A program made the position numbers and the translations under genes. Below are positions 19,116 through 42,592 of a stretch of 64,000 nucleotides of DNA, one piece after another. Source of the stretch: a virus; IMG/VR virus record IMGVR_UViG_3300045988_173726, positions 128,001 through 192,000 of that record; one strand, given 5' to 3'. Numbering within the stretch: the stretch's first letter is position 1; every line of letters begins with the position of its first letter. Below the pieces are notes generated by a model. The model did no database searches and was not told the DNA's origin. It saw only the letters and a list, made by a program, of their open reading frames with translations.

Positions 19116-19139
19116 GGGGATAAAAGGTTAAGTCTAGGG

Positions 19140-19185: not shown

Positions 19186-19205
19186 AGCGGTAAAGATATT
19201 AGAAT
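19177..19205 (+). promoter_or_regulatory. Candidate sigma-A promoter
   Basis: TTGTTT (19177-19182), 17-nt spacer, TAGAAT (19200-19205), upstream of GTG 19282. Confidence 0.35.
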
Positions 19206-19281
19206 GCAAGCAGTACCCATTAGTTTATTCTGGGAATGAGTTTAAGGCAAAGTTTGGTCTTTTTAAGCGGGAGGGCTTTCA

Positions 19282-22252: not shown

Positions 22253-25200
22253 ATGAATAGTCTACTGTATAGACTAAAGCTAAAGATATACAGCAAGGTC
22301 AGAAAGTATAGGAGCAAGGTGCTTGCGGGTTTTTTAATCTTTGCTTCTGTATCGAACCTGTGTGTTCCGTTAGCGGCGCAGGGGTTAGAGCTGTCGGGTT
22401 CGATAGGTACGAATGCGGCGCTCGGCTCGCCGTTGTTAAACGATGCGAGTTGGGGTTCAGAGGACTGGAACCCATATGAACTAGTGACTTTCGGAGTTTT
22501 CCTAAGTAACTTCACAGTCCCGATGGTAGATGACTATAAGTCAGCATTTCAGAAGGGATTTGGCGGTTCTGGTGGCAAGGGACAGGAGGCTCTACAGTTT
22601 AGTGTAGAGTCAGATAGCCAAGCAACGGAGATATTAAATCCGATGCTGTCTTACTCTATCAAGATGCAGACGAAATCCTTAAAGGAGATAAAGGTCATTT
22701 ATCATGACTTAAAGCTTGCGGATAAACTTGAGGATAATGTCGGTGGTTTAACGGCAGAGAACACGAAGGATGCAAAGCCCGCAGTTTTAAGCGACCTGTT
22801 TCCAGAGGTCAAGTGGAAGCTTGACGACATATCGAATAAAGAGAAAGGGTATGTAACGGGGGTTGCAGACTATAAGGCGGCAAGCGGGGACGGGACTAAC
22901 ATAACGGTGCAGTATGCGACAGAGTTCCGTTTGCCAGAGTTCTTTATAAGCGCGGCGAACTCAAAGCCAGTAACGGTGCTTAACTACACGGACGGTTACG
23001 ACCCGATGGCGGTTGAAGCGGCGATACTCGGAGCAGAGAGGAAGTCGGAGTATGGAAAGACGGTAGACGCGAACTTAAATAAGGCAAAGGATTCGCCAAT
23101 CTACTTAGATTCATTCGGAAATATCGTTACGAATCTGGATGGTAAGACGGTAGTGGTGTTACCGGCATCTGCGAATCAGCATTTGACAAAGGAGAAGAAG
23201 ATAAATCTTCTAACGAATGTGTTTATGCAGAATAGCTATTTGCAGGCGAGTGACGCTTCGTTAATCGAGGGAGCATATAGCGGTATCAGTCACGGAATCG
23301 GAAGCACGACAAAGTATTATATGGGAACAAACCCGCTTGTCGGGTATAACATGGACGATAGCCGTAATTACTCTACGATTCTCTACACCGACACACAGCA
23401 GTTTATCTTTGACAGTGCATTAAGCAAGATAAAAGAGGGAACAGGAGTCGAGGATGCTCTGTCACAGGCGGTAAACGAGGACGCGGGTAAGAATTTAATT
23501 ACGCTTGCGACAAAGAAACTAACGAAGGAGAACATAAACCTTCCGTTTAGAGTCGGAGTTATAGGCGGTGACGGTGTTTTAGGGTCAGATAACAAGATAA
23601 CGAACGCTAGGCAGTCGTCTGGAGAGGGTATCGGTGCATCGTTTGCGGCTTTGGTCGGAGCGAACAGTAGTAGTGCAGACGACCATGTAATGCTTGGAAA
23701 CTTGGCACTTGCAAACAATCTAATCAACAACTGGTTTCCTGTGAACACGAATACGAAGGTCGCGAACGCGATGATAACGCTTGACGATAAGAAGCAGTTA
23801 ATCTCCGACCAGACTTATTTCGCACAGGCGGGAACAGCGGTTTTGCAGAACTATGTAAACTTTGCAACGGGGTATTTGAACGCAAGTAGCGAGTATAAGA
23901 TAGCGGACAGCAATGTTCCAGACCAGAGCAAGTTTAAGGACAGCATTAACACAGCAGTAAAGCCAGAGGAGCTTTCGGCGGCGCTTTTAACGGACAATGC
24001 GACAAGTTTAGACGCAAATAACCAAGCGAACGGGCTTTATAAGTATTGGGCGGTAAATGAGGGAAAGTCGCGGTTTAGCGATAGGATTAACATAAACGCG
24101 GTGGGCAGTAATGTTTCGCTTCACAGCATAGAGCCTACGATTACGAATCCCGTTTATAAGCTCTTGGGTTACAGAGTTTCTGGAATTTACAACAGCAACT
24201 CGGCTATGAAAACTGCGGCTGGTGTGCTGAATATCAACGAGGGTATGCAGTTTGCGGCATATACGCCATACATATATCTCACATACTTAGATTTTTACGG
24301 AATCATAAACGGCAAAAACAACTTTGATACAGACCTGTTCGGGACGGGAGATGTGATTTCGGTAAAGTCCGAGGATTTGTTTGAGGGGACTATTCTTTCG
24401 GAAGAGGATAAGAAGAAGCAGATAACGAATTACACATACAAGTTCCTAGATATTAAGGGAGGAGCATCATATAGAAAGCAACTAGCAAATAACTTTATAA
24501 CAGAATTGCTCTACGACAACTACAAGAAGATAGTATTTGGCACAGATAGCAGTACGATAAGCAGTTCGATAGCTACCAACAACTCGGAAGGCTTTTTAAG
24601 TGTCAACAGCCTTTCGGATAACATGTTTATAGGCAAGCTGTTTAGCTGGTATCTTAGAAATATCGTAATATTAGCGGGAGTTTTGCTAATTATCTCGTTT
24701 ATAAGCGGGGTAGTGCAGGGTTCTGGAATCGTAGGAATCTTTACATCAGTGGTATCAACACTAGCAATGCTATTGCTAATCCCGACTCTGATAGATGTAG
24801 TCCCGTATATCTGTAATAACACGGTGCAGGGGATGTTTGCTAGGAGCATGAAGTACTGGGCGATTTCAGAGAGTATAGACAATCAGAGTATCGCACAGGA
24901 GTTTAACGGGTCGAAGGCAGGGGATGCGGATGTAAACACATATATTCGAATGCTAAACATAACGCAACTTAACAAGACGATAATGATAAAGAACGACATA
25001 TCAAAGAAGATAGTGCCGAGTACGAAAGACATCGACTACAATAAGTTGCAGAAGTTAAAGACGACACGGTGGCTACTGCCCGCAGTGATGAGACAGCTAA
25101 CGGCAGATGATAAGTCAGCGAACTATGTTTATACGACTCTAAGTGACTTGTATCAGAATTTCAGTAATATGTATTGGTATTACAGGACAAGTTCCGAGGG

Positions 25201-27361
25201 TGGGGATAAGCCGTCTTTGGACATGCAGGCGGTCGGAGACTATAACGCAAAGGTAGCGGCAGATGTAGGAGTCGGAAAGGCGGCGGGAGCGAATGAAGAG
25301 AATGTAATGAGTGAGTCGAAGAAGCAGACGGTATTTGTCGGCTATCGTCCCACTCGTCCTACTGGGGATAAGGAGAAGGAGTTTGATTATCACAGTCTAA
25401 GCAGGGATAGCGCAGAGAGTGAGGACTTGAAGGCGCTTCACACTTCGTTTTATATCATGAACTTCGGGTCAGCGTTTACGGTAGAGAACCCGTTACGACA
25501 TACAGAGAGCGGTGAGCTTGACACAGGGGCTTGGAACGATTACGCGGCGTATATAAAGGGGGAGGCTTCGTCAAACGGTAACACAGGGTTTGCGGATACG
25601 GTAAACAACAAGATATTGCCGATGGTAAGTCAGTATTCTCCGATTAGTACGCCAGTACAGCAGTGTTTCGGGTATTTCTGGATGACAGAGAGTCCCGCGC
25701 ATTACTTCTATGAGGTAACGAAAGACACTTTTGAGAACGGAATGACGGTTGGAGGTCTGATATATCAGCTACAAGGCACATATGCTCCGATAACAGACAA
25801 GTATGATTTAGACAAAGACGGAGATACGAGCGAAGTTTATACGGATATGTCGGGGAAGGAGCAGGGAGACGCGCATCACACATTTATGCGAGACTCTGCA
25901 ACAGGTAAGATAAGAGATTTCCTCGACATGGAGGAGTTGTTCACGAATGTAATCCCGTATATGTATAATGTACAGGTGATGGCAAGCGGGAATGACGATG
26001 GGACAGGCTTTTTAGGGGACGCAGTGCTAGGTTCTGACTACAGTGTTTATGAGAAGAACAAGAAGTATTGGTTGTTCCGTAGTAACTGGGTAAATAAGAT
26101 AGTAGAGGACAGGTCGTATCGGGCGAAGGCGACTATAGGGTATTATGACGAGTCTGGAAACAAGGCTTCTGCGGTAATAAATTCGTCATTAGACCCGTCA
26201 AGTTACGCGAAGTATCGAAAGATGGTATTTAGTGAAGCGCAGATGGAGCAGATGCGTTTAACGGAGCAGGATTTGTCGATAGTCGAGCTTAGAATCCTAG
26301 AGGTAAACAGGAGAGTAGAGAAGGAGTGGACGAGTTTAATCAACTACTCAAGTACTGACAAGTTAAGCGCCGAGGTTTTGTACAGACAAATGGCGATAGA
26401 CGCGCTATTAACCTTTGACAAGGTATTTTCGTCTGGAAACAAGCTAAGTGCGGCGTATCAGCTTTATCCGACAACGCTTGATTTGCGAAATGTATCGTTT
26501 GACAGTGTGTTTAAGCTTCTGGTCATGAGTGCAACGAATGCGCCGCAGACGCTAAACAAAGACACGATGAAGGTCGTGATTGAGAACGGCGATATGTTGT
26601 CAACGATATTGCTTCTGCTGGATGCAGTGCTTGGAGTGGCGCTTGCGCCGATGCTAAGAGACTTAGGAATAGCGGTAGTGACATTATTGTTTATCTACGA
26701 GCTAATAACGGGCTTTATCTTTAAGCGAGGCAACAAGAATCAGTTAATGGCGGGTGCGGCATTCCTGTTTGTGAAGGTAGCGGCTTTGACGGTGGCGTAT
26801 TACGAGGTGTTCAACCTTATGATAACGGTCACTTCGCCAAATCAAGTGTTAAGGCTTGATAGTAACATGGGATGGAGCGGACACGGCACTTGGTTTATTT
26901 TCCTCATGATTTTCCTTGCGTCAGCGGGGTATGTATACGCGCTTGTGAAGTTTATTATTATCTTTGCGGTAACACATCGGTATGACATGGGCTTTGAGGC
27001 AACTATGTTTACGCTTAACTCGATAGCGGGTAAGACGAGAGGGATTCTAAGCAAGGTAACAGGAATTGACCTCGGTGGAAACGCGGCGAGTTCGAGTTCG
27101 ACAGAGAGCGGAAGCGGCACAGATAGTCCTATCAGAGTCGAGGGCGGTGCAAGCGCGGGTAGTAGTGAGCCTACGGTAGTTACGGCAGACGATGACGAGA
27201 GCGATAACAGTAGCGCAGTGGATGACGATAGAGAGCAGAGCGGATATAGTTATTACGAAAACGAGGGTTCTTCGGGGTCGTCCAGTGCGTCCGAGATAGA
27301 CGACATGATAGAGGACGGAGAGGACAAGCAGAAAGAGGACAAAGAGAAAGAGGACGAGTGA
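22253..27361 (+). CDS. Giant polytopic membrane protein (possible VirB6/TcpH-type channel analog), function unknown
   Basis: 1702 aa. SD AGAGAGG. N-terminal signal/TM. TM cluster near aa 795-860 (IVILAGVLLIISFISGVV..GIFTSVVSTLAMLLLIPTLI). Second cluster near aa 1465-1600. Acidic Ser/Asp/Glu tail. Confidence 0.65.
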   Translation: MNSLLYRLKLKIYSKVRKYRSKVLAGFLIFASVSNLCVPLAAQGLELSGSIGTNAALGSPLLNDASWGSEDWNPYELVTFGVFLSNFTVPMVDDYKSAFQKGFGGSGGKGQEALQFSVESDSQATEILNPMLSYSIKMQTKSLKEIKVIYHDLKLADKLEDNVGGLTAENTKDAKPAVLSDLFPEVKWKLDDISNKEKGYVTGVADYKAASGDGTNITVQYATEFRLPEFFISAANSKPVTVLNYTDGYDPMAVEAAILGAERKSEYGKTVDANLNKAKDSPIYLDSFGNIVTNLDGKTVVVLPASANQHLTKEKKINLLTNVFMQNSYLQASDASLIEGAYSGISHGIGSTTKYYMGTNPLVGYNMDDSRNYSTILYTDTQQFIFDSALSKIKEGTGVEDALSQAVNEDAGKNLITLATKKLTKENINLPFRVGVIGGDGVLGSDNKITNARQSSGEGIGASFAALVGANSSSADDHVMLGNLALANNLINNWFPVNTNTKVANAMITLDDKKQLISDQTYFAQAGTAVLQNYVNFATGYLNASSEYKIADSNVPDQSKFKDSINTAVKPEELSAALLTDNATSLDANNQANGLYKYWAVNEGKSRFSDRININAVGSNVSLHSIEPTITNPVYKLLGYRVSGIYNSNSAMKTAAGVLNINEGMQFAAYTPYIYLTYLDFYGIINGKNNFDTDLFGTGDVISVKSEDLFEGTILSEEDKKKQITNYTYKFLDIKGGASYRKQLANNFITELLYDNYKKIVFGTDSSTISSSIATNNSEGFLSVNSLSDNMFIGKLFSWYLRNIVILAGVLLIISFISGVVQGSGIVGIFTSVVSTLAMLLLIPTLIDVVPYICNNTVQGMFARSMKYWAISESIDNQSIAQEFNGSKAGDADVNTYIRMLNITQLNKTIMIKNDISKKIVPSTKDIDYNKLQKLKTTRWLLPAVMRQLTADDKSANYVYTTLSDLYQNFSNMYWYYRTSSEGGDKPSLDMQAVGDYNAKVAADVGVGKAAGANEENVMSESKKQTVFVGYRPTRPTGDKEKEFDYHSLSRDSAESEDLKALHTSFYIMNFGSAFTVENPLRHTESGELDTGAWNDYAAYIKGEASSNGNTGFADTVNNKILPMVSQYSPISTPVQQCFGYFWMTESPAHYFYEVTKDTFENGMTVGGLIYQLQGTYAPITDKYDLDKDGDTSEVYTDMSGKEQGDAHHTFMRDSATGKIRDFLDMEELFTNVIPYMYNVQVMASGNDDGTGFLGDAVLGSDYSVYEKNKKYWLFRSNWVNKIVEDRSYRAKATIGYYDESGNKASAVINSSLDPSSYAKYRKMVFSEAQMEQMRLTEQDLSIVELRILEVNRRVEKEWTSLINYSSTDKLSAEVLYRQMAIDALLTFDKVFSSGNKLSAAYQLYPTTLDLRNVSFDSVFKLLVMSATNAPQTLNKDTMKVVIENGDMLSTILLLLDAVLGVALAPMLRDLGIAVVTLLFIYELITGFIFKRGNKNQLMAGAAFLFVKVAALTVAYYEVFNLMITVTSPNQVLRLDSNMGWSGHGTWFIFLMIFLASAGYVYALVKFIIIFAVTHRYDMGFEATMFTLNSIAGKTRGILSKVTGIDLGGNAASSSSTESGSGTDSPIRVEGGASAGSSEPTVVTADDDESDNSSAVDDDREQSGYSYYENEGSSGSSSASEIDDMIEDGEDKQKEDKEKEDE

Positions 27362-27397: not shown

Positions 27398-27526
27398 ATA
27401 CCTACGATAAAATTTTTGTATTTTGCGCGTCACCAGTTAGATTTTAGCTAAATAGTAACAAGCCTAGCCAAGCGAGTTGCTTGGCTATTGGCTTAAGTAG
27501 GTGTATATGAGTAGGGGAGGGTGCTT

Positions 27527-29050
27527 ATGAACAGCAAGCGACTTAGGATGAACGAGCAGGGGCGCATGTTTATCCCGATGAATGTCGAGGGCGGGGGATA
27601 TGACGAGAATTTCTTTAGCACGCCGAAGTTAATCACAGCGGGATTGCTTGTATTAGTGCTTGTGATATTGATTGCGACACTAGTGAGTCCAGATAACAGA
27701 CTTAGCGTGCTGGGTAAGGTGCTAACGGTATTGCTTTATCTGTTTATCGCATCATTCGTGGTTAGGTATGTGATATTCGAGGAGCGCTACTATTTCAAGA
27801 TGTATAAGAAGATGTTAGCGAATCAGAATCCGACTACTGCGGTGTTTTGGCGTATAGCGGCGATAAGAGATACGGTTAGAGGCGGTATTCTTCGGTATTC
27901 TGACGGAAAGTACGGTGCTATCTTAAAACTTGAGAGAGATTCGATAATCGGAAAGAACTCGGAGTTTAGGGAGAGTCATTTTGACGCATTATCTGATTTC
28001 TATAAAGAGTTAGCATTAAGGAAGCTAGCATTCGTGCAGTTAAACATGATGGAACGGGCTGACAACGATTCACGAATACCCGCGTTAGACACGCTGATAT
28101 TAAACGAGCCGAACGCGAATCTAAAGAAGGTCTTGCAGTTAGAGTTAGGCTACATCAAGAACAGGTCACGGGAGACTTTGTATGAGACAGACTATATCCT
28201 AGTTTATACGACAAAGCTTGAGCGGGTGGACAATTTAATCAGTGACATACAGGCTTGTGCTTCGATTTTACTGGACGGAGCGTATAGCGGGTTCGAGATA
28301 TTAGGTCAGCGAGAGATAATCGACCTTCACAAAGAGATATTCGGAATCGGCTACTTTAACCTAAGCGAAGCGTCTATAAATACCTTTAACGAGGTAGGTG
28401 CTAAGAAGAAAGCGATAACGCTAAAGGCGTTAAAGCTAACGAATGGCAGGACGGTAGAGCTTACGAAGCGGGATACAGACATTATCAACCGTTTATTAAA
28501 GCGGGTAGAGGACGGAGAGGTAGATATATCGGATATATCGGTCTTAAAGGCTCTGGGAGACAACAGGTTTGTATCAACGACAGCGGAGCGCGGAAGTTGG
28601 GGCTTGCACGGTCTTGATATAGACTTAGGAGAAGAGGAAGAGGAGCAAGAGAGCGGTACAGGCGAGGAAGAGCGCGAGGTTTTAGAAAAGCCAGCAGAGA
28701 GTGAGGAAAAAGTGCGAGAAGAAAAGGAGAGGAAGGTAAGTATTGATGAAGAGGTAAAGATAGCGGTCGCGGAGAAGATTCGAGCGAACGCGGCATGGAC
28801 TATGGACAGTGGGAAGAGAGAGGACAGGAGTTTATCAGAGAGGGCGAAAGCGGACAAAGAAACTGGTAAGCCAGTATCCAAGGATAAGCCAGAGGTTAAA
28901 GACACGACTAAGCCTGTGTCTAACGAAAAGGGAGAGGTAAGAGACTCTGGAAAGCCAGTACAGAGCGATAAAACAGAGGAAAATAAGGAGTATGTCGCGA
29001 GTCCCGTATTTAACGAGGATGTAGACTGGGACAAGGAGATAGATTTCTAA
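27527..29050 (+). CDS. Membrane protein with 2 N-terminal TM helices, large cytoplasmic domain and K/E-rich repeat tail; function unknown (VirB3-like topology)
   Basis: 507 aa from ATG 27527 (SD GGGGAGG 6 nt upstream; the track GTG 27521 abuts the SD). TMs LITAGLLVLVLVILIATLV and VLTVLLYLFIASFVVRYVIF. Tail has imperfect repeats GKPVSKDKPEVKD / TKPVSNEKGEVRD / GKPVQSDKTEE. Confidence 0.65.
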   Translation: MNSKRLRMNEQGRMFIPMNVEGGGYDENFFSTPKLITAGLLVLVLVILIATLVSPDNRLSVLGKVLTVLLYLFIASFVVRYVIFEERYYFKMYKKMLANQNPTTAVFWRIAAIRDTVRGGILRYSDGKYGAILKLERDSIIGKNSEFRESHFDALSDFYKELALRKLAFVQLNMMERADNDSRIPALDTLILNEPNANLKKVLQLELGYIKNRSRETLYETDYILVYTTKLERVDNLISDIQACASILLDGAYSGFEILGQREIIDLHKEIFGIGYFNLSEASINTFNEVGAKKKAITLKALKLTNGRTVELTKRDTDIINRLLKRVEDGEVDISDISVLKALGDNRFVSTTAERGSWGLHGLDIDLGEEEEEQESGTGEEEREVLEKPAESEEKVREEKERKVSIDEEVKIAVAEKIRANAAWTMDSGKREDRSLSERAKADKETGKPVSKDKPEVKDTTKPVSNEKGEVRDSGKPVQSDKTEENKEYVASPVFNEDVDWDKEIDF

Positions 29051-29060: not shown

Positions 29061-31085
29061 ATGAATATTTTAATTTGCGCGGGGTATAAGTACGAGAGTT
29101 TAACAAGCTCTCTTACGGCGATGTTTCGTGATGGTTCGGTAAAGGTAAGCGGAGTTCCGCTGTTGTCTGATGTGGACGAGTATATTGCGAGGGGAAGCAC
29201 TTTTGATAGAGCGATTATCACAGAGGAAGCCATCACAGAGGACGGGAACCTTACAGAAATTGACGATATGCTTGTGGTAGTCGAGAAGTTTGCGGAGGAG
29301 ATGTCGGGGATATTTGACGACAAAGAGGCAGTATTTATCCTAAACAGCGAAGAGTTAGCGGATGCAGTGCTTACGCAGTTGTTTATGAGTTCGGAGCGCG
29401 TGCGGGTGGTGCTTAGAAGTCGGATAGACAGTCTAAATATGTCGTATCTTAGGGACTTAACTCTGGTTCGGCTACAGGACTTCAAGACGAATCAGAATCT
29501 AAAGAAGTCTGTCTTTACGCAGGGGGCGGTAAGCAGTAAGGTAGACGAGGATTTAGAGGGAGATAACGAAGAGGAGCTTTCGTTTGAGGATGAAGAGAAG
29601 GGTAATGAAGAGAGCAAGGCAGATTTCAGCGATTTAGATGGTCTGTTTGGGGAAGATGCAGACGATATATCGTTTGATGACGATGAGAAGTTCGACTTTG
29701 GCATTGGTACGGACGAGCCAGAGGAGAAAGAGGGGGAAGTTCCAAGTTTATCGGAAGATGACGAGAAGTCCGAGGAAAATGGAGAGAGTATCGAGGAAAA
29801 GGACGCTCCGAACCCGCTCGGAAACGCGGACGGAATTCAAGATTTTTCGGGTTTGTTTGACACTGATACCGCCTCGGAATTTGACGCGGAAAGTAGCCAA
29901 AATGAGCCGAACCAAGACGAGTTATATACTTCAGAGAAAAATGAAAATTCGGACGGTCAGTTTAGCGCGGGCGCAGAATTATTTGATACTTCGGAAAATT
30001 TTGGTATAGACCAGACACCAAAAACGGCTATACCAGACCCTCAAAATTCGGGGCTTTCCCCGACCCCCCATTCGGGAGAAGTCAGTGTAAACTCTTCGGT
30101 TACAGCTTCTCAAAAGAAGGGTCTTTTGGGAGGGATTTTCGGTGGTAAGGGGAAGGGGTCGGTAGCCGCTCCGAAGGTCGATAAGCCTCGTCCGACTCCG
30201 AAGCCAAAGAGGGGAGAGAGGAACAGTGCGGCGACTATAGAGGAGCTAAAGCGTTTAATCGAGTCGTATAAGTATCGCGGTAAGGTTGTGCTGTTTACGG
30301 GGACAAAGGATAGCGGCACATCAACACTTGTCGCGAATATGGCGAATATCGTGAGTAAGCTCGGCGGGACAGCGCTGGTGGTGGATTTAGCGTATAACGG
30401 ACGGACGCAGGCGTATATGACTGGGGAGGCGTATCGGAATCTGCACAGTGCGGGCGCGGATACGAATGACTTAAGGCTCTGCTTAAATAATAAAAAGGCA
30501 GACATCTTAAACTACGCGGCTACGGTAAGGCAGGGATATAACTTGCTCGGCACGGGTTTAGGTGTAGATTTCGAGAAGCCAAAAGACATCGTTCGGAATA
30601 TCGACAATGTAAAGAGTTTTCTGTATTCTGCGAAAAGCACATACAATCTGGTCTTTATAGACGCACAGTTTAGCGACATTGTAGGCGAGTTTAAGGAGTT
30701 TGAGGACGGGTCGGATATAATTGTCCTAAATACCACTTCTACGACAAAGGCGATGCTAGAGTTTATGCTTTTGATGTGCAACATCGAGGACAGTCAGTTA
30801 AGAGAGAACTTCTTTAGCAACTCAAAGCTCGTGTTTAACAAGGCGACCGACAACAGGTTTTTACTCGGACGGCAGTTTAAGAGCTACTACGAGATATTGA
30901 CAGAGCTTGACGGAATTGTGCAGAATCTAACGACCTATACGGCAGGGTTTAGCGAGATGAATATAGTCGGAGCGATTCCGTATGACGCAAGTAACGACAA
31001 GATGATGTTTACGGACAGGTTAATCTCTGACGGTAAAGAGTACACAGGTCTTTTTGCAGAGATATTATTAAAAATATTAAAGTGA
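29061..31085 (+). CDS. TadZ/CpaE-like protein: atypical receiver-like domain, ~220-aa acidic linker, MinD/ParA-like domain with degenerate P-loop
   Basis: 674 aa. SD AAGGAGG. N-terminal MNILICAGYKYE lacks the CheY acidic pair. C-terminal VVLFTGTKDSGTSTLVANMANIVSKLGGTALVVDL resembles GAKGGVGTTTLAVNLA, but GKT is replaced by GTS. Walker-B-like LVFIDAQ. Confidence 0.6.
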   Translation: MNILICAGYKYESLTSSLTAMFRDGSVKVSGVPLLSDVDEYIARGSTFDRAIITEEAITEDGNLTEIDDMLVVVEKFAEEMSGIFDDKEAVFILNSEELADAVLTQLFMSSERVRVVLRSRIDSLNMSYLRDLTLVRLQDFKTNQNLKKSVFTQGAVSSKVDEDLEGDNEEELSFEDEEKGNEESKADFSDLDGLFGEDADDISFDDDEKFDFGIGTDEPEEKEGEVPSLSEDDEKSEENGESIEEKDAPNPLGNADGIQDFSGLFDTDTASEFDAESSQNEPNQDELYTSEKNENSDGQFSAGAELFDTSENFGIDQTPKTAIPDPQNSGLSPTPHSGEVSVNSSVTASQKKGLLGGIFGGKGKGSVAAPKVDKPRPTPKPKRGERNSAATIEELKRLIESYKYRGKVVLFTGTKDSGTSTLVANMANIVSKLGGTALVVDLAYNGRTQAYMTGEAYRNLHSAGADTNDLRLCLNNKKADILNYAATVRQGYNLLGTGLGVDFEKPKDIVRNIDNVKSFLYSAKSTYNLVFIDAQFSDIVGEFKEFEDGSDIIVLNTTSTTKAMLEFMLLMCNIEDSQLRENFFSNSKLVFNKATDNRFLLGRQFKSYYEILTELDGIVQNLTTYTAGFSEMNIVGAIPYDASNDKMMFTDRLISDGKEYTGLFAEILLKILK

Positions 31086-31093
31086 GGTTTGCG

Positions 31094-32485
31094 ATGGCGG
31101 CGCAGTATACGGTAAATTTCAGTGTAGAGGGTGCAGACGAGCTGGATATAGCTTCGGAGCGTCTTACAGGGGAGACAGGAAGCACGGTTTATGTGCTTCT
31201 AAACGAGGAGTCGAATAATAGGCTCTATGACTACTATGCGTCCGTAAAGACGCTAATCCTAAAGGGGAACAGGGTAATCCTGTTCCTTTCGGAGGATAGG
31301 AGTAAGATAGGGACGCAGATAGCGATGCTACTGGTGTCGTATCGGCAGTACGACATTTACAGAATCGAGAAGGAGAGTTTATTAACCTCGGAATATCTTC
31401 GGGAGGTATCGGAGAGATGCCCGACATACGAAGAGGTAGAGACATTTATCAGCAGTGATATAGCGACATATGACAAGCTAAACGAGGTGTTATCAAAGCT
31501 ATCGGATTTAGCACAGGGTAATAAGCTTGAGGAACTAACAAGTGAGATAATGAGCAACATAACGGTGCTTGAGAGTACGATAAATGTTGTAGATTATCTA
31601 AAGAACCTCGCAGATTCTTCGACTATTGGCTTCAAGGAGACGGTAGAGAGGCTTGGAGCGGAGTTAAAGGACAGGGAGAGAGAGCTTGAGAGCGCGAAGC
31701 AGGAGAGGGACGCGAAGGAGTTTAGCTTAAGTCGTTTGCAGACTAAGGTAGCGGAGCAGGAAGATGAGATAGCGAAGTATAAAGAGAACTTCGAGAAGGC
31801 GTATACGAGCGAGGGTAGCGGAGTTCTAAAGTATAGCACGCTAAGTATGCGAGATATACAGACGACTACGAACGCTGTGCTGTATTTCAAGGAGATAGGG
31901 AAGCTTAGATATATCAATTCCTTTGTAATTGCGCTGATGAGCGTGTTGCAGAAGATACATAAGCTTTCTGTGAAGCTGTTAATCTATGACGACAACGCGA
32001 ATTTCGATGTTTACAAGCCGTTGACATTTGTAGACGGTCGGATATATCGGGAGAGCAAGGATATATTTATCACAGCGGGAAAGAATGACGCTATGGTAGT
32101 TACAGAGCCAGTGTCGTTTATCCTAAGCGACATGCTACGGAGTCGTAATTTCGATGTAGTTATCGTTTACGACCGTTTACGGCAGAAAGAGGACTTGATA
32201 ACTGGCATACAGGTCTTTAAGTATTATGTGGTTTCCAGTAGCAACGACTATAAGGGCTTAAAGGCAACGATACCAGACGCTCCAGACGAGTATATTATCG
32301 GTCATCCGTATATTTCCGACAGGATTATCGGGTTAGGCGACATAGAGCGTAGGCTAATCAGCCAAGGAAAGGCGGCGGTCATGAGTAACTACTGCCGTTT
32401 AACAAATGCCTGCGGGGATAAGGGAATTATTTTCAACGAGATATTAGACAGAATCAATGTAAACTTCATGAAACAGCGGGGTTAA
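31094..32485 (+). CDS. Second receiver-like / coiled-coil / ParA-fold-like protein with no P-loop (possible paralog of 29061-31085)
   Basis: 463 aa from ATG 31094 (the track GTG 31082 overlaps the upstream stop). N-terminal flavodoxin-like pattern VYVLLNEE..VILFLSED..YDIYRI. Central coiled coil (KDRERELESAKQERDAKEFSLSRLQTKVAEQEDEIAKYKE). C-terminal AVLYFKEIGKLRYINSFVIALMSVL..LLIYDD..VVIVYD. Confidence 0.5.
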   Translation: MAAQYTVNFSVEGADELDIASERLTGETGSTVYVLLNEESNNRLYDYYASVKTLILKGNRVILFLSEDRSKIGTQIAMLLVSYRQYDIYRIEKESLLTSEYLREVSERCPTYEEVETFISSDIATYDKLNEVLSKLSDLAQGNKLEELTSEIMSNITVLESTINVVDYLKNLADSSTIGFKETVERLGAELKDRERELESAKQERDAKEFSLSRLQTKVAEQEDEIAKYKENFEKAYTSEGSGVLKYSTLSMRDIQTTTNAVLYFKEIGKLRYINSFVIALMSVLQKIHKLSVKLLIYDDNANFDVYKPLTFVDGRIYRESKDIFITAGKNDAMVVTEPVSFILSDMLRSRNFDVVIVYDRLRQKEDLITGIQVFKYYVVSSSNDYKGLKATIPDAPDEYIIGHPYISDRIIGLGDIERRLISQGKAAVMSNYCRLTNACGDKGIIFNEILDRINVNFMKQRG

Positions 32486-32544
32486 GGAGTTTACAGCAAG
32501 TAAGACAAGGGATAGCGAGGATAAGGGATAGCGAGGTGGCGTAA

Positions 32545-34695
32545 ATGCTATTTGGGAAGAAGAAGCCGCGTAAGGGCTTAGAGAGTGGCGTAGATAAGAA
32601 AGTAGCGGCTACGCCGCCCGCAAAGGTAGCGAGCAAGAAGAGTTTATCTGGGGCAAAGAAGAGCCGTAAGGGAACGAAGCTCGACATGTACGATATGATA
32701 ATCGCGAATTTGTATTCGGGAAATTCAATCGTAGAGCCAGATACGGACTTAGATAAGACGCATATAGACATAGGGTTTAGTAATATTACTTCGGAGAAGT
32801 ATATTATAAAGTATTTCATGATAAACTCACTTCCCGACTGGTTATCGCCGAATGTTCTGGATAAGATACGGATGGCGTGCTTAAAGAAGGGCGTTCGGAT
32901 TAACTATTATATCTACGGAGAGCCGCACAAGATAAACTGGGATTCGCCAGAGATGAAGAACAGGATGCGGACATGGCGTAGGTATGCGCAGGAGGGAAAG
33001 GGCGGAGATGTCTTTGACTATCGTAACAGGCGCGATGAGGAGTTAGCCAAGCACAGAATCGTAGAATCGACCTCATACTTAAATGTTTCGGAGTTGGATA
33101 ACAAGCGAGAGCTACTAAAGGTAAGTTTAATGGTCGAGGTAGCGGGTCTTAGGGACGATGAGTCTATAGCAAACATGGGGGACTCGGTGCGGTTGTTAAA
33201 AGATATGTGCGCTCGGAACGAGATAGGAATTTTAGAGATTCGAGTAAACATGATAGACTGGCTACAGCAGTTAGGTATATTCAGTTTGCAAAGAATAAAA
33301 GAGGTTTATAAGCGCATCACGAAGAAGATATTGACGGACGATATTCTAGCCAACTTTAACAGCTATAAGCAGGGTAGAATCGGAAAGTCTGGTATACCGC
33401 TCGGAATCGACACAAGTTCTATGGCACCTGTCTTAAAGGAGTTCAAGGAGAACTCGTCTGATGCAGAGAATATTTTGATTTGCGGTACAAGTGGTAGCGG
33501 AAAGTCGATGTTTCTAAAAGTGTTGCTGACTTGGATGATGACAAAGTATGTCGTAACGGTTCTGGACTACGAGGGAGACGAGTATAGCAACCTAGAGTCG
33601 TTGGTTTATGCGGGGAATCCGAAGGATGCGATTCAAATTTCGATGGGAAGCGGAAGTACGGCGTATTTCGACCCGATGCAGATAGGCGATTTAACGGGGG
33701 ATGACAGGATAGACAACGACCTAAAGGACGATGCGGTTGAGTATATCATGGCGACATTCCGAACTATCATTGCGGGAACGGACGGAGAGCTAGGTACGCT
33801 AAAGACTTCGATAGTGAGTGAGGCGGTAAAGCGTGTTTATGAGGACGCGGGCGTAACGAACGATAAAGACACTTGGAAGCGGTCAAAGGGACTTCGTATT
33901 TCGATGGTGTATGAAGAGATAAAGGACATGGTTTTGTCGGAGGAATATCGAGATACGAACAGTGATGACGCAAAGCATAACGAGGCGAAGGATATACTGG
34001 AGTCTTGCAGGCAGTATTTTGAAGAGGGCGAGATAAGAGCAGGAACTTTTGCGAATCCGATAGACATAGATAGTCTTAGAAACTGTCGTTTAATCGTATT
34101 TAGCTTTGGACAGAAGGGTGCGGATGCGGAGAAGCAGGATAAGACGCAACTTGCTTTGAAGCAACTTTGCGTAGCGAATATCTCAACACAGATTTCAAAC
34201 TACTGCAAGTATGTTAGGAAGTGCTTTAATGTGAAGGTTTGGGAGGAGTATCAGCGTTGGGGCGAGATAGCGGGAAGTTCTTCTCTAATCGGAAATTGTA
34301 TGACTGGCGGTAGAAAGCGTGGAGAGATAAACTTTATCATCACGAACGACCTAAGTAACATGATAGACGAGAGTAATAAGATAAACGCGAAGTTATTGCA
34401 GAATCTAACAGGGTATATTATCGGTTCTATCAAGTCTAGGAGTGTTAGAGAGAAGTTTTGCGACATGTATAACATTCCAGAGATGAAAGCGCCGCTTGAG
34501 AAGATATATAAAGCCTCGTCAAAGAAGAGGACTAAGGGAGATAACACATACAGTTTATATCGTCACTCATTTTGCGTGATAATGGATAGCGGAGAGAAGG
34601 CGATAGTAAAGGCGATGTTGCCAGATGAGCTGTTAAACAGTAAGTTATTTAGGACAGGCGTAGATATAGAGGGAAATACAGGGTTTAAGCGATAA
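32545..34695 (+). CDS. virB4: VirB4/TcpF-type type IV secretion ATPase
   Basis: 716 aa. SD GAGGTGG. N-terminal domain pattern YIIKYFMINSLPDWLSPNVLDKI, as in VirB4 homologs (y.r.f.i..lP....pgwl..L). Walker A ICGTSGSGKSMF. Walker-B-like region KVWEEYQRW. Late RGEINFIITNDLS. Confidence 0.75.
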   Translation: MLFGKKKPRKGLESGVDKKVAATPPAKVASKKSLSGAKKSRKGTKLDMYDMIIANLYSGNSIVEPDTDLDKTHIDIGFSNITSEKYIIKYFMINSLPDWLSPNVLDKIRMACLKKGVRINYYIYGEPHKINWDSPEMKNRMRTWRRYAQEGKGGDVFDYRNRRDEELAKHRIVESTSYLNVSELDNKRELLKVSLMVEVAGLRDDESIANMGDSVRLLKDMCARNEIGILEIRVNMIDWLQQLGIFSLQRIKEVYKRITKKILTDDILANFNSYKQGRIGKSGIPLGIDTSSMAPVLKEFKENSSDAENILICGTSGSGKSMFLKVLLTWMMTKYVVTVLDYEGDEYSNLESLVYAGNPKDAIQISMGSGSTAYFDPMQIGDLTGDDRIDNDLKDDAVEYIMATFRTIIAGTDGELGTLKTSIVSEAVKRVYEDAGVTNDKDTWKRSKGLRISMVYEEIKDMVLSEEYRDTNSDDAKHNEAKDILESCRQYFEEGEIRAGTFANPIDIDSLRNCRLIVFSFGQKGADAEKQDKTQLALKQLCVANISTQISNYCKYVRKCFNVKVWEEYQRWGEIAGSSSLIGNCMTGGRKRGEINFIITNDLSNMIDESNKINAKLLQNLTGYIIGSIKSRSVREKFCDMYNIPEMKAPLEKIYKASSKKRTKGDNTYSLYRHSFCVIMDSGEKAIVKAMLPDELLNSKLFRTGVDIEGNTGFKR

Positions 34696-34865: not shown

Positions 34866-37139
34866 TTGGGAGCGGAGCAGGACATATTAGAGGCTAGGAA
34901 TCAAGGCGGTATGGCAGACGGGTTTTCGGATAGCGAGAGTTTAGATGATTTGTTCGGAGATTTCGGTGATTTAGGGGGAGATAGCGGAAACGGGTCGGGA
35001 GACGGGAACAGTAGCTTTGGGCTTGACGATTTAACGGGGCTTGATAGCTCTGGCGGTATTTTTACAGACCCAAACGGAAACGCAGGAAACGCGGGAGTCC
35101 CGCAGTATGGCGGGTTTAATAACGGACAGCCAGCGGGGAAAGTCGAGGGGGACAGGTTCGATAAAGTCTTAGACGCAACGATGGACGGTGCGGTAGGGAC
35201 TTTTGAGGTCATAAAGGTTTTGGTCGGAAGTATCGGGAGCAGGAATGCAGACGATATAGGGAGTTACAGCCTAAATCTCTTAAAGACGGGCGGGGTGTTT
35301 ATCGTATTTTCGCTGGTTGCTACGATAGGCGGCGTAGTAAGCGGGTTAGGGCTTCTAAGATTTATGGGTATGCCGTTTAAGATGCTAACGAGCGGGATAT
35401 TGCTAACAGGGACTTCGTTTCTCGGGTTAAGCGGAGCGGCGATAAAGCTAATGGGCGGTAAGGACTTGCCGACATTTGAAGAGGATGCCGCGAATCTGCC
35501 AGATATAGACAGTAATGTAGGGGAAGCAAGTAGCGCGGGAAGTGCCGAGGAAGAGGCAGATGAGTTGTTTGGCGGTCTTGACTTTGGGGATGACGATGAG
35601 GAAGAGGACTCGGACAGCGAGTTTAGCTTCAGGGACGACAGAGAGGATACGGTAGCAAGCGCTCATGCGGAGTCCGAGGGCAGTTTATTTGACAGGCTCA
35701 TGCGTAGTGGGGACAGTAAAGAGAGTGCAGGGAGCTTAGAGAGTGTACCAGAGAATGTGCCGATGATAACTCGGGAGTTCCTAGTAAAGACATTCAAGCC
35801 GTTCTTTAAGCCGAATAATCCAGATTTTACGAAGGTAAGGACATACGGTTCGGACGATGCAAAGTTTCGGGAAGCGGAGACAGCTATCGTATCGGCGTAT
35901 GCGTCAGCGGCGGGCAGGGACATAGCAGAGATAGCGAGCAGTGTTTATCTAGGGTCTTTTGAGGAGACTTTGTATTGCTACAAGTTTTCGGTAAAGCGCG
36001 TTCCGAAGGTTAGGGTGACAGAGAGTTCGTTGTCGGACGAGATACGGGCATATTTTGTAAATTTTGATACAGCAGAGAAGCGAGACATAGCAGAGATAAC
36101 GACTTCGGTAACGAAGAACGCGGATATGTATGACATAACGGTATCTAGGTCAGCAAAGGCGGGGGTTGTAACGCTTGGAGACTGTTTAGAGGAGAGCGAC
36201 ATCTATAACTACTTCGTAGACGAGGGGCATAAGTTGCCTATCATTTCGGGTATAGACGAGTATGGAGTGCCTGTAAAGTCGGATGGCAAGATTTACGAGT
36301 CGTTTCTGATAGCTGGTAAGCCGCGTTCTGGTAAGTCGTGGACGGTAAACAGCTTAGTTATGCAGTTGCAAGTCTTTAATTTGCCAGAGGATGTGCAGTT
36401 TTTGTATATCGACCCGAAGGACTCATATCTTTTCAAGTGTTTATCGTATATGCCGCATTGTTGTGGGTTGCATAATCACAAGAGAGCGATGGAGATATTG
36501 GATGACATAGTAAACAAGGAGTCTCCGAGGCGTGCGAGGATATTGCAGGACAATCAGTGTGACACGATATGGGATTTGAGGGCAAAGGGAATCAAGATAC
36601 CGATTCTTTATATCGTGATAGACGAGTTTATGACAGTGGTAGACTACTATTCCGACAGGATTGGCGAGTTTAACGGCTTGGTTAAGCAGATATTAACACG
36701 GCTTCCGTCTCAAGGTATTCGTTTAATCTTCGTGCCGCATAGAGCGCAGGGCGTGGTAGATAAAACGATACGGTCAAATTTAAGCTATGTCGCGGCGGTA
36801 AAGGCAGACGATGAGGTAGTAAAAGAGACGCTTGACATCAAGAAGTGGAGTAGGAGGCTTGTGTCGGCGGGTGATACAGCGTTAAAGTTGTCGGATAAGA
36901 CTTTGTATGTGAAAGGCATTGCGATAGCTACGGATGACAACGAGAATACGAAGCTAATCAAGGAGATAAGCAAAGCGTTTTACAAGATGCGGGTAGAAGT
37001 TCCCGATATGTCAACAATAGGAATCGGGTATAACAGAGACGAGGGCGACATACAGGAGGCTTTGCGGGTAGATAGCGGAACTTCGACCTCGGTGCAGTAC
37101 GATGTGAACAGGGTATTGCAGGATTTAAGCCACTTATGA
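34866..37139 (+). CDS. FtsK/SpoIIIE-family membrane ATPase (TcpA-like type IV coupling protein candidate)
   Basis: 757 aa. TTG start with SD GGGGGTGAGGGAG; ATG at codon 16 is an alternative. Acidic FG-motif N-terminus. 2-3 TM helices (VFIVFSLVATIGGVVSGLGLL, ILLTGTSFLGLSGAAI). Walker A GKPRSGKSWT. Walker B LYIVIDEFM. Confidence 0.8.
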   Translation: MGAEQDILEARNQGGMADGFSDSESLDDLFGDFGDLGGDSGNGSGDGNSSFGLDDLTGLDSSGGIFTDPNGNAGNAGVPQYGGFNNGQPAGKVEGDRFDKVLDATMDGAVGTFEVIKVLVGSIGSRNADDIGSYSLNLLKTGGVFIVFSLVATIGGVVSGLGLLRFMGMPFKMLTSGILLTGTSFLGLSGAAIKLMGGKDLPTFEEDAANLPDIDSNVGEASSAGSAEEEADELFGGLDFGDDDEEEDSDSEFSFRDDREDTVASAHAESEGSLFDRLMRSGDSKESAGSLESVPENVPMITREFLVKTFKPFFKPNNPDFTKVRTYGSDDAKFREAETAIVSAYASAAGRDIAEIASSVYLGSFEETLYCYKFSVKRVPKVRVTESSLSDEIRAYFVNFDTAEKRDIAEITTSVTKNADMYDITVSRSAKAGVVTLGDCLEESDIYNYFVDEGHKLPIISGIDEYGVPVKSDGKIYESFLIAGKPRSGKSWTVNSLVMQLQVFNLPEDVQFLYIDPKDSYLFKCLSYMPHCCGLHNHKRAMEILDDIVNKESPRRARILQDNQCDTIWDLRAKGIKIPILYIVIDEFMTVVDYYSDRIGEFNGLVKQILTRLPSQGIRLIFVPHRAQGVVDKTIRSNLSYVAAVKADDEVVKETLDIKKWSRRLVSAGDTALKLSDKTLYVKGIAIATDDNENTKLIKEISKAFYKMRVEVPDMSTIGIGYNRDEGDIQEALRVDSGTSTSVQYDVNRVLQDLSHL

Positions 37140-40948: not shown

Positions 40949-42592
40949 ATGTCAGTCAGAAGTCCGATAATACGAGACGGAATGTATCGCGGGACGATAA
41001 CGGACGCGCACGCCTCGGGTATCTTAAGGGTTCGGGAGAGTAAAGAGATAGCGGGGATGAAGCATATGGTGTTTGATTTCCCGTTAGAGCTTGTGGAGCG
41101 TTCGATACGGGAAGAGAAGAGCATACGGAAGATAGTGCGGGAAGAGGGAATCGACTATCGGCAGTATTTAGGAACATTGAGGTCGTATCAGACGGTAGGC
41201 GCGGCGTTTATGTATATGTCGCCTCGGAGTATGATAGCGGACGGCGTAGGTCTTGGAAAGACGATAGAGATAGCGGCGGTGCTAAACTACTTGCGTGGGA
41301 AAGGGCAGATGAGGCGGTTTTTAATGGCGGTCGAGAACTCTGCAATAAGTCAGACGCAGTATGAATTAACGCGGTTTACGGGTATGCGGATAGTGGCGCT
41401 GTCTGGCGAGTCCAAGCATATGCAGAAAGAGATAGACACGATAGACTGGAACGATGTGCAGGGGATAATCATAAAGCACAGTTCGTTGAAGTCAGATAGT
41501 TTGTATCGGTGGCTTGCGAAGTATGCAAAAGACGATATGACGAATGGAATGTATGATGTGTTTATTTTGGACGAGAGTTCTGTGATAAAGAACGATAAGA
41601 CAAAGACATATCAGTACACGAAGAACCTGTGCGCGTATGCGGACAGGGTGCATTTTATGAACGCTACGGCGTTTGACAAGAATATCATGGATATTTACTA
41701 TCAGATAGACATGATGGACGAGAACTTACTGCCGAAGCGGTGGAGGATAGAGCAGGATTTCTGTAATCACAGTTCAAAGCTTTATTGGTCTAAGGGAATT
41801 AGAGATGACGGAAAGTGGGGCGGGATTCAAAAAACTGCGCGGAGTATAAGTTCATATAAGAATCAAGATGCTTTTAGGCGGCTACTGCAACTTGTGTATT
41901 TCGGGCGGTGCAAGAAAGATGTAGGGTTAGACAGACCGAATATCTATAAGGTTTACGAGGTAGAGCCTACAGCGGCGCAGTTAAACGCGATAAAGGCGGG
42001 GTATCGGTATAACGAGGTTTTGAATAGTCCTTCTTGTATCGAGGAGCTTAAGATAAAAGAGAGTGCAAGCACGGTACCAAAGATAGCGCGAGTATGTAGT
42101 TTATTAGAGAACGACTTTGCAGACAGCAGTGTTATGATTTATTGCTTTCACATTGCGGCGCAGAAAGCCTTAAAGAAAGAGTTAGACGCTCGGGGCAGGA
42201 GATGTGTAATCCTAAACGGAGAGGATAGCAGTAAGGATAAGGATGCGAAGCGGGCAAAGATTATAAGCGACTTTAATAGCGGGGTTTATGACACAATAAT
42301 CACGAATATTAAGAAGTCACTAAATTTGCATGGCGGGGATGTCTGTATTTTCTACAGTATGAGTACAACAGTCTCGTCTATGGAGCAAATACGGGGCAGG
42401 ATAGACAGAAATGTAGACGACAGGGTTAAGACTTTTATCTTGCTTTTGTATGTGGGTACGGATGAGTACAGGTTTTTCACGGATACGGTAAAGAATCGAG
42501 CGAAGTCAGCGAGAGAGCTTACGGTAGACGCAGAGACAGCGATAGATTATTTCATTGAGTCAATGAAGGGAGACAGAAATGAAGCGGAGTAG
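40949..42592 (+). CDS. SNF2/SWI2-family helicase-like ATPase
   Basis: 547 aa. SD GGGAGGTG. LRSYQTVGAAFMY. Motif I ADGVGLGKT. Motif II FILDESSVIKN. C-terminal helicase domain with SMEQIRGRIDR (motif VI-like). Confidence 0.75.
   Translation: MSVRSPIIRDGMYRGTITDAHASGILRVRESKEIAGMKHMVFDFPLELVERSIREEKSIRKIVREEGIDYRQYLGTLRSYQTVGAAFMYMSPRSMIADGVGLGKTIEIAAVLNYLRGKGQMRRFLMAVENSAISQTQYELTRFTGMRIVALSGESKHMQKEIDTIDWNDVQGIIIKHSSLKSDSLYRWLAKYAKDDMTNGMYDVFILDESSVIKNDKTKTYQYTKNLCAYADRVHFMNATAFDKNIMDIYYQIDMMDENLLPKRWRIEQDFCNHSSKLYWSKGIRDDGKWGGIQKTARSISSYKNQDAFRRLLQLVYFGRCKKDVGLDRPNIYKVYEVEPTAAQLNAIKAGYRYNEVLNSPSCIEELKIKESASTVPKIARVCSLLENDFADSSVMIYCFHIAAQKALKKELDARGRRCVILNGEDSSKDKDAKRAKIISDFNSGVYDTIITNIKKSLNLHGGDVCIFYSMSTTVSSMEQIRGRIDRNVDDRVKTFILLLYVGTDEYRFFTDTVKNRAKSARELTVDAETAIDYFIESMKGDRNEAE

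Follow-up and report, generated by a model that had tools for sequence, protein, structure and literature searches.

What two proteins of no recognisable family do directly beside the motor ATPases of a conjugation-type machine is the question raised by a 64-kb stretch of the IMG/VR virus record IMGVR_UViG_3300045988_173726 (record positions 128,001–192,000), the whole of which was analysed and is called the window below. The large open reading frames (ORFs) of the window all lie on the + strand, its GC-content is 46.5% and the GC skew is strongly positive throughout. Two of these ORFs, designated A and B, are located just 5′ of the genes for a VirB4-like and then an FtsK-like ATPase:

29061..31085, + strand: ORF A, 674 aa, with a receiver-like N-domain, an acidic disordered linker, a motif resembling a membrane-targeting sequence (MTS) and a C-domain of predicted MinD/ParA fold
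31094..32485, + strand: ORF B, 463 aa from the ATG, with a modelled alpha/beta N-domain, a probable coiled coil and a P-loop-less SIMIBI-like C-domain
32545..34695, + strand: VirB4-like ATPase
34866..37139, + strand: FtsK/SpoIIIE-type single-domain ATPase with an N-terminal hydrophobic region

A and B probably belong to a type IV secretion system (T4SS) of the kind encoded by the plasmid pXO16. The narrower reading, that both are conserved cytoplasmic scaffold or positioning subunits of the pXO16 (tip)-type T4SS on giant plasmid-like elements of Bacillota, is given about an even chance, and confidence in the mechanism is lower than in membership of the machine.

ORF A starts with an ATG preceded by a strong Shine–Dalgarno (SD) sequence, AAGGAGG. 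For ORF B, the ORF finder places the start at GTG 31082, and only this codon gives the 4-nt overlap with A reported in a first-pass annotation of the window. The ATG at 31094 has a GAGG motif 7 nt upstream and agrees with the starts of homologues (MxY...), so B probably starts there, with an 8-nt gap after the stop codon of A. With either start the two genes are tightly coupled, and both are under purifying selection.

Besides the four genes above, the conserved module comprises three genes 5′ of A, and a helicase gene is conserved 3′ of it:

19282..22239, + strand: 985-aa cell-wall-binding (choline-binding-type) repeat protein with two C-terminal transmembrane (TM) helices (repeat and endolysin-like matches in Pfam and PHROG, TM scan)
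22253..27361, + strand: 1702-aa polytopic membrane protein with ~7 TM segments (TM scan), a candidate channel or VirB6-like component; homologues 29–42% identical in 11/11 loci
27521..29050, + strand: 509-aa protein whose N-terminal 2-TM hairpin is followed by a cytoplasmic domain (TM scan), kept in 11/11 loci
40949..42592, + strand: SNF2/DEAD-type helicase (Pfam), 55–58% identical in loci reaching that far

Eleven divergent metagenomic loci were chosen by the B anchor alone. The order cell-wall-binding protein, giant membrane protein, 2-TM protein, A, B, VirB4-like and FtsK-like ATPase is kept in 11/11 of them. Conservation starts with the gene for the 985-aa protein, homologues of which occupy the corresponding place in every locus. 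The FtsK-like ORF is kept in nine of the 11, and the other two loci end before reaching its position. The VirB4-like gene is the most conserved of the module (48–64% identity in 11/11 loci) and A encodes the least conserved protein (26–43% identity across divergent loci). Every relative examined has A and B placed after the genes for the membrane components and before those for the two motor ATPases.

A tblastn search of plasmids with the VirB4-like gene identified pBTHD789-1 (= pXO16, NC_018516, 350 kb), with 31% identity over 88% of the query (E = 2e-75). The region around this match is syntenic with the window and homologous for six genes, with low identities of 22–31%:

1702-aa membrane protein: 1834-aa protein of pXO16 (E = 6e-22)
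509-aa 2-TM protein: 445-aa protein of pXO16 (E = 6e-15)
ORF B: 412-aa protein of pXO16 (hhalign E = 4.3e-6)
VirB4-like ATPase: 645-aa protein of pXO16 (E = 2.5e-85)
FtsK-like ATPase: 776-aa FtsK/SpoIIIE protein of pXO16 (E = 1e-27)
SNF2 helicase: 528-aa DEAD/DEAH helicase of pXO16 (E = 5e-66)

The pXO16 genes at the A-like and B-like positions (BTF1_RS29420 and BTF1_RS29415) are annotated as hypothetical proteins only. Plasmid pXO16 of Bacillus thuringiensis sv. israelensis is experimentally conjugative, and its 25-kb tip locus was described as a “novel type of T4SS” (PMC9673590), with two essential ATPases and a hydrolase assigned (PMC9673590, PMC6199540). The syntenic region is probably the tip locus, to judge from its pair of ATPases, its size and its number of coding sequences.

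An A-like “AAA family ATPase” is also encoded on two further Bacillus plasmids, of 215 kb and 145 kb, together with a coiled-coil protein directly 5′ of the VirB4-like gene; they come from Bacillus sp. PM8313 (K9N56_RS24050 and K9N56_RS24055) and B. velezensis US1 (KM843_RS20510 and KM843_RS20515). The A-like proteins score 44.8 and 39.1 bits against a hidden Markov model of the A C-domain and 37.8 and 35.9 bits against Pfam AAA_31, and their P-loops are degenerate (SAPNAGGSGLV and GQEGSGATT); the motif of the coiled-coil proteins is YFKV or YIKV. The A, B, VirB4-like, FtsK-like order in 11/11 loci and in Bacillus megaplasmids including pXO16 supports the connection with a Gram-positive conjugation-type machine that was proposed at first pass; A and B also co-occur with an adjoining VirB4-like gene, with the qualification that the A position of pXO16 lacks a ParA domain. 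Further genes were observed in these plasmid loci. In the Bacillus sp. PM8313 plasmid (locus L032), a gene for a ParB N-terminal domain follows the FtsK/SpoIIIE gene (18927–19923) and there is an M23 peptidase gene after the VirB4-like one (11043–11870); in pXO16 (locus L030, 21841–22185), a SpoVG-family gene lies between the FtsK-like gene and the helicase gene.

Both motor ATPases have intact Walker motifs. The best NCBIfam matches of the VirB4-like ORF were VirB4_plasma (56 bits, E = 1.4e-15, cut-off 590) and the CD1110 family (48.8 bits, E = 3.4e-13, cut-off 325), and the best PDB match was the C-terminal domain of VirB4 (4ag5, E = 7e-4). The profile scores behind the earlier label “VirB4-type” are weak, far below their cut-offs. 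The Walker A motif is GTSGSGKS. The FtsK-like ORF matched Pfam FtsK_SpoIIIE (6.9e-14) and EccC, FtsK and YukB in the PDB, possesses Walker A GKPRSGKS and Walker B IVIDEF and is a candidate coupling protein of the TcpA/Orf21 kind. It scores best on EssC/EccC models, and a type VII secretion system (T7SS) was considered as the primary reading; the single ATPase domain, the VirB4-like partner and the pXO16 homology led to its rejection.

Cultured relatives of the module are Bacillus plasmids only, and no relative was found in 185,579 GTDB species genomes by a scan with the B alignment; megablast of 13 kb of the window versus phages and plasmids gave no match. The contigs of the relatives are 88–390 kb in length where the assembly is long enough, with close relatives of the window on contigs of up to 268 kb. 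Inocles are intracellular, circular, plasmid-like elements of oral Streptococcus, 245–395 kb in length and absent from isolate genomes; all contain VirB4 and VirD4, and they feature a strong GC skew, co-oriented genes and a GC-content of 24–32% (PMC12340149). Divergent relatives of the module, with 32–36% GC on contigs of 300–390 kb, are similar to them, and some of the metagenomic relatives may be Inocles. With 46.5% GC, the lineage of the window is at most Inocle-like. No match to the Replic_Relax domain (PF13814) of the Inocle marker InoC (~454 aa) was found among the window ORFs scanned, and the marker may lie outside the 64 kb. ORF B, which is of similar length, was considered as InoC and rejected, having no Replic_Relax domain. 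A host among Clostridia, suggested at first pass, is not supported by these relatives. The IMG/VR contigs with loci L001–L029 (88–295 kb) may be misfiled giant plasmids, the nearest characterised relative being a conjugative plasmid.

ORF A of the window was not recognised in direct Pfam, PHROG, NCBIfam and PADLOC scans, which gave nothing specific, and phmmer of A versus PDB sequences gave only noise. In a word-indexed homologue search the acidic linker dominated, and most matches were copies more than 90% identical; the sole distant homologue in this first search, P0009 (1111 aa, 28% identity), has an identical three-part layout. Distant orthologues (n = 12) were taken from loci anchored on B. 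The structure was modelled with AlphaFold2 (AF2) from a shallow alignment, with an overall predicted local distance difference test (pLDDT) value of 51.8 and values of 75–88 for the domains. The following parts were distinguished:

29061..29480, + strand: N-domain, aa 1–140, with a (beta-alpha)5 CheY-like fold (AF2)
29481..30230, + strand: linker, aa ~141–390, acidic (26% D/E) and disordered (pLDDT <35)
30111..30158, + strand: basic amphipathic motif QKKGLLGGIFGGKGKG, aa 351–366, resembling the Escherichia coli MinD MTS
30231..31082, + strand: C-domain, aa 391–674, with a predicted MinD/ParA (SIMIBI) fold (Foldseek, family profile)
30300..30326, + strand: degenerate Walker A motif GTKDSGTST, aa 414–422, with the Lys of GK[ST] replaced by Thr

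Residues 1–135 form a confident (beta-alpha)5 domain (pLDDT ~76–85), which matched the PhoP receiver domain (2pkx, E = 4.9e-4, TMt 0.63) in a Foldseek search of the PDB. The alignment of 12 sequences shows neither the acidic pair of the pocket after beta1 nor the conserved Asp at the end of beta3, and the domain is hence an atypical receiver that would not be phosphorylated in the usual way. The family profile of the N-domain found no match among PDB sequences, and the N-domain of the window protein alone had no match in Pfam at E ≤ 10, TadZ_N included.

The linker is the fastest-evolving part of A, with a pN/pS of 0.276 among close relatives. In the orthologues it is 210–670 aa long with 16–41% D/E, and it cannot be aligned apart from the basic motif. 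The core of this motif in the window, KKGLLGGIFGG, is located 5′ of the C-domain and has the hydrophobic pattern (i, i+1, i+4, i+5) of the MTS of E. coli MinD, KGFLKRLFGG (PMC5471200). Similar motifs (e.g., KKGLLGGIFGGKGKG, KKGLFGGMFGRGKK, RKGLFGR and KKGLIGLFSKG) occur 50–90 residues before the P-loop in 9/12 orthologues of A, as well as in the homologues P0010 and P0011; the A-like protein of one Bacillus plasmid has PRKGVFGKLLKRK. By its resemblance to the MinD MTS, the motif may tether A to the membrane.

The C-domain model is moderately confident. Its top Foldseek match in the PDB is the MinD-like FlhG (4rz2, E = 7e-6), followed by NifH, BchL, HypB, Soj, FleN, ParA and MinD, with E-values in the range from 7e-6 to 6e-4. 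Among PDB sequences, a profile of six divergent C-domains matched the BY-kinase CapB (5e-8) and an archaeal MinD (1.7e-6) best. Six orthologues (P0009, L013, L023, L025, L031 and L032) reach 29–38 bits with Pfam AAA_31, the cut-off of which is 27 bits; the window protein has no AAA_31 match, its best being CbiA at 13.9 bits. The architecture described at first pass, a receiver-like domain, a hyperacidic linker (here ~250 aa) and a MinD/ParA fold, is thus supported, with FlhG, Soj, ParA and MinD recovered by the fold searches.

The P-loop GTKDSGTST was also correctly read as lacking GK[ST]. At the Walker A position, the 12 orthologues have GTKDSGTST (the window), xGG[SC]GTST (n = 5), G[TA]S[ND]SGS[TS]T (n = 3) or G..SGK[TS] (n = 3), i.e., the Lys of GK[ST] is kept in three (L013, L023 and L025) and absent in nine. 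The signature Lys of the deviant Walker A motif KGGxxGK[ST] is absent family-wide, so that the window protein misses both lysines. In the window, the second Asp of Walker A′ is gone as well (VVDLAY vs. VDxD in orthologues), and the Walker B Asp is kept in every orthologue. In a neighbour-joining tree, the Lys-bearing members are placed as sister or outgroup to three Lys-less clades, which implies at least two to three independent losses. Among close relatives, pN/pS is 0.025 for the C-domain and 0.055 for the N-domain. Such strong constraint despite the loss of Lys argues for a retained structural role of the C-domain with a relaxed need for canonical hydrolysis. The term “pseudo-ATPase” used at first pass goes further than the P-loop permits, since TadZ without Walker lysines is reported to keep ATPase activity in a passage of PMC10482377 that cites Xu 2012, and three orthologues of A keep GK[ST].

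ORF B is equally devoid of annotation. Pfam, PHROG, NCBIfam and PADLOC contain nothing specific for it, phmmer versus PDB sequences gave noise, the BFVD viral structures gave no match, and the central region has only coiled-coil noise matches in Pfam and NCBIfam. A word-indexed search found 16 homologues of 22–46% identity. An exhaustive search extended the family to 155 clusters (at 50% identity) with E ≤ 1e-30 and 428 with E ≤ 1e-3, nearly all of 450–490 aa, and B can be considered a member of a sizeable unannotated coiled-coil family. The AF2 model (pLDDT 81.6) consists of an alpha/beta N-domain, a long helix (160–240) and an alpha/beta C-domain, in which two parts are of interest:

31454..31801, + strand: central helical region, residues 125–240, with an uninterrupted helix of ~80 residues at 160–240 (AF2, DSSP)
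31883..31912, + strand: segment YFKEIGKLRY at the position equivalent to the P-loop, between beta1 and alpha1 (alignment and model)

The helix is probably a dimeric coiled coil. Nearly all of the top 50 fold matches of B are SIMIBI NTPases (NifH, MeaB, HypB, MinD, CTP synthase, BioD, FtsY and FlhF), which suggests a SIMIBI-like C-domain. The residues K270 and E271 do not vary, a glycine-rich loop is absent (strand 265–271 and helix 278–292 in the model) and acidic residues persist at the presumed Walker A′ and Walker B equivalents (KLLIYD and VVIVYDR). The layout proposed at first pass, an N-domain followed by a coiled coil and a ParA-fold-like C-domain with the P-loop lost, is thus supported. 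The description of A and B as two degenerate copies is not: hhalign of the A N-domain and C-domain versus B was not significant, and A and B share at most a fold class.

Several known systems resemble parts of this arrangement. TadZ/CpaE proteins resemble the modelled A in combining an atypical receiver-like N-domain with a ParA/MinD-type domain and in having a Walker A motif without the canonical lysine, and TadZ has been put forward as a factor that localises a membrane nanomachine together with its motor ATPase. The partner machine of A is a T4SS instead, and A differs from TadZ in the acidic linker and MTS-like motif between the domains. The TadZ Walker A consensus is K/RGGXGXS/T (bioRxiv 10.64898/2026.07.08.737194); GTKDSGTST of the window does not fit it, whereas the xGG[SC]GTS relatives fit except for the leading K/R. 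Six full-length relatives of A had no Pfam TadZ_N match at E ≤ 0.1, and no TadZ chain is among the matches listed (60 by sequence and 50 by fold) for the A C-domain in the PDB. The absence of Tad partners, pointed out at first pass, was confirmed for the large ORFs of the window scanned versus Pfam, with no T2SSE/TadA, T2SSF (TadB/C) or pilin match, and no Tad genes are among the called genes of the related loci. The designation “TadZ/CpaE-like” can hence be kept as an analogy of architecture, but not as a family assignment.

TsfV of the clostridial T7SSf is similar to A in layout, as a TadZ-like atypical receiver fused to an ATPase, in an FtsK/SpoIIIE-driven Gram-positive secretion cluster without Tad genes (PMC11217815). 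By its description, TsfV differs in being an AAA+ ATPase of a T7SS with WXG100 substrates (PMC11217815); the module studied here combines a VirB4-like ATPase with an FtsK-like one of a single domain, and EsxA-like genes were not seen in it. VirC1 of Agrobacterium and ParA of the gonococcal genetic island are ParA/MinD-like and function in T4SS DNA transfer (PMC8716806). Unlike A, they are Gram-negative, require a canonical Walker A motif and have a ParB-like partner, and they lack a receiver domain, an acidic linker and a coiled-coil partner. FlhG is the best fold match of the A C-domain and the MinD MTS is closely resembled by the amphipathic motif, but in A this motif is N-terminal to the domain and not at the C-terminus, both Walker lysines are gone, and there is no MinC/MinE or flagellar context. 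The tip locus of pXO16 shares with the window the giant replicon, co-oriented genes and module order, and differs in having no MinD/ParA domain at the A position; the window element is of metagenomic origin and has its own, 46.5% GC-content.

The reading of A and B as scaffold or positioning subunits would work as follows. The C-domain of A would be a MinD/ParA-type dimerisation module that in most lineages no longer depends on the Walker A Lys, and would therefore be a switch that is static or only binds ATP, without cycling as an ATPase. The MinD-MTS-like motif just 5′ of it would hold A at the membrane, the acidic disordered linker may serve as a spacer or an electrostatic regulator, and the phosphorylation-incompetent N-domain may offer a protein-docking surface, as proposed for the atypical receiver domain of TadZ. 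B would form a coiled-coil dimer, the P-loop-less SIMIBI-like head of which may pair with A. The joint task of A and B would be to bring the VirB4-like and FtsK-like ATPases to the membrane channel or to fix their position there, and perhaps to do so for the DNA substrate as well. Precedents for a positioning role are TadZ/CpaE in Tad pili, FlhG in flagella and VirC1 in the Agrobacterium T4SS, and ParA-like proteins that serve secretion machines include TadZ (bioRxiv 10.64898/2026.07.08.737194), TsfV (PMC11217815) and VirC1 with the gonococcal ParA (PMC8716806). A scaffold, in preference to a cycling ATPase, is favoured by the loss of the Walker A Lys in three separate clades together with the low pN/pS of the C-domain, and the reading as a whole is supported by the intact Walker motifs of both motor ATPases and by the constant placement of the MTS-like motif within a linker that cannot otherwise be aligned.

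A number of points weigh against this reading. The pXO16 protein at the A position (306 aa) shows an acidic stretch as well as the basic motif KRYGFFGLKKLSK, but no MinD/ParA domain; its N-domain resembles that of A weakly and not significantly (hhalign E = 0.0086). As pXO16 conjugates nevertheless, a ParA-like domain at this position is not essential to the machine type. The exact published coordinates of the tip locus are unconfirmed for the syntenic region, and conjugation has been demonstrated for pXO16 alone among the members of this machine type (PMC9673590). By curated thresholds the VirB4 assignment of the ORF at 32545 is weak, and the PDB fold matches of B are marginal (Foldseek E from 8e-3 to 0.1). 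The pairing of A with B, the membrane binding of the motif and the contacts with the ATPases are all inferred, and both proteins are known from sequence comparison and predicted models alone. Finally, IMG/VR lists 15 of the related contigs as viral genomes, which leaves a phage-related role some probability.

Among the alternatives, recruitment of the substrate is rather unlikely. According to it, A and B do not position the machine but bring the very large DNA substrate or its processing complex to the FtsK-like coupling protein, a task that VirC1 and the gonococcal ParA perform in their T4SSs (PMC8716806). The absence of a known relaxase and oriT from pXO16 (PMC9673590), the size of the elements (115–390 kb) and the ParB N-terminal-domain gene after the FtsK-like gene in one Bacillus plasmid would suit such a role. 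However, Pfam and NCBIfam scans detected no DNA-binding domain in A or B, the acidic linker would repel DNA, and the Walker A box required by the gonococcal ParA (PMC8716806) has lost its Lys in most orthologues of A. Replicon partition, with A as the ParA of a giant low-copy element and B as its adaptor, merely adjoining the transfer genes, is still less probable. Partition ParAs need a deviant Walker A motif with both lysines, and nine of the 12 orthologues lack the GK[ST] Lys; no ParB gene or centromere repeats are found beside A and B, and tblastn of A versus 72,556 plasmids was empty. The ParA/MinD fold of A and the need of giant low-copy replicons for partition speak for it, as does the loss of Inocle_004 from isolates in liquid culture, which makes maintenance an issue (PMC12340149), but the position between the T4SS membrane genes and the VirB4-like gene is invariant in 11/11 loci and the Bacillus plasmids, and pXO16 keeps B with no ParA-like domain at the A position.

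The remaining two explanations are both highly improbable. An inactive BY-kinase-like or regulatory module, in which A would go back to a tyrosine kinase of the CapB/CpsD type and would now gate or regulate cell-wall remodelling in mating, would account for the CapB chimeras at the top of the PDB sequence matches obtained with the C-domain profile, for the similarity of the Walker A′ region (VDxDxxxRTQ in A, VDGDMRKPTQ in CapB) and for the cell-wall-binding proteins in the module. Only this region of A is CapB-like: the catalytic Walker A Lys is lost in most members (Thr in the window), and the C-terminus of the window protein, ...GLFAEILLKILK (...EYTGLFAEILLKILK), contains no tyrosine cluster. 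Fold matches favour FlhG, NifH and Soj, and the NCBIfam scores for MinD and BY-kinase are equally weak. As for a phage function, huge phages would use the FtsK/HerA-type ATPases with A and B for genome packaging or delivery. Searches of 50,697 phage records found no DNA or protein match for A and no tblastn match for the VirB4-like gene, the FtsK-like gene has only weak matches to Bacillus SPO1-like phages, and 30 window ORFs compared with PHROGs include no capsid, portal, terminase or tail family. Also against it, pXO16 transfers by conjugation (PMC9673590), and Inocles are intracellular and plasmid-like (PMC12340149). In its favour are the viral listing of the 15 contigs, the co-oriented genes, for which pXO16 was called phage-like (PMC6199540), and the presence of genes for a polymerase, clamp loader and helicase.

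Positioning by A and B within a pXO16-type T4SS can be taken further, in a form that is speculative and doubtful: the two proteins may make up a membrane-anchored SIMIBI pseudo-heterodimer that docks both motors, in a distinct and widespread class of Gram-positive T4SSs for replicons of 150–400 kb. The repeated, independent loss of Lys would then mark the passage from a switch to a nucleotide-independent scaffold, and the linker with the MTS-like motif would act as an electrostatic latch on membrane engagement. The machine itself has already been described, as the tip locus of pXO16 and through VirB4/VirD4 in Inocles; no description of the A or B proteins was found in the literature.

Some other features of the window were observed. 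B is separated from the VirB4-like gene by a 59-nt spacer (32486–32544), which contains a tandem direct repeat, two copies of GGGATAGCGAGG placed 3 nt apart, the second of which overlaps the probable SD sequence of the VirB4-like gene. The N-terminus of the VirB4-like protein (32545–32590), MLFGKKKPRKGL..., is a basic Gly/Leu/Phe stretch reminiscent of the linker motif of A. Directly 3′ of the FtsK-like gene (37162–38424), a 420-aa hyperacidic protein is encoded (33% D/E), in which there are long tracts of poly-D/E and a segment, RELALKEREIALKERELALRERE, that is repeated; its homologues are present in only some related loci. A family A DNA polymerase domain protein (371–1552; 393 aa, comprising just the polymerase part) and a DnaX/clamp-loader-like AAA+ protein (14001–15437) are encoded upstream of the module. 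Downstream, a DUF2201 metallopeptidase/VWA-like protein adjoins an AAA_5 (MoxR-like) ATPase (43749–47128), and this pair has strong PHROG matches, phrog_1314 (labelled HNH endonuclease, 1.9e-66) and phrog_1297 (ATPase, 1.2e-49). A tellurite-resistance-type stress cluster (52508–57475; YceG_bac, TelA, TerD and more TerD-sized ORFs) is followed by a gene for a P-type cation ATPase (57561–60185) and by a 708-aa fusion (60303–62429) of kinase (AAA_33), metallophosphatase and T4-type RNA ligase domains, a Pnkp-like RNA repair enzyme.

With A and B, the pXO16-type T4SS would gain two more conserved components as targets for Bacillus genetics. The machine seems to be common to giant elements abundant in metagenomes, including Inocle-like ones of the human mouth, that are not yet maintainable in culture. 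If A acts as proposed, a Gram-positive T4SS would join the envelope machines that recruited a ParA/MinD-like organiser, and the Lys-bearing and Lys-less orthologues of A would form a natural series on when such organisers stop needing ATP hydrolysis.

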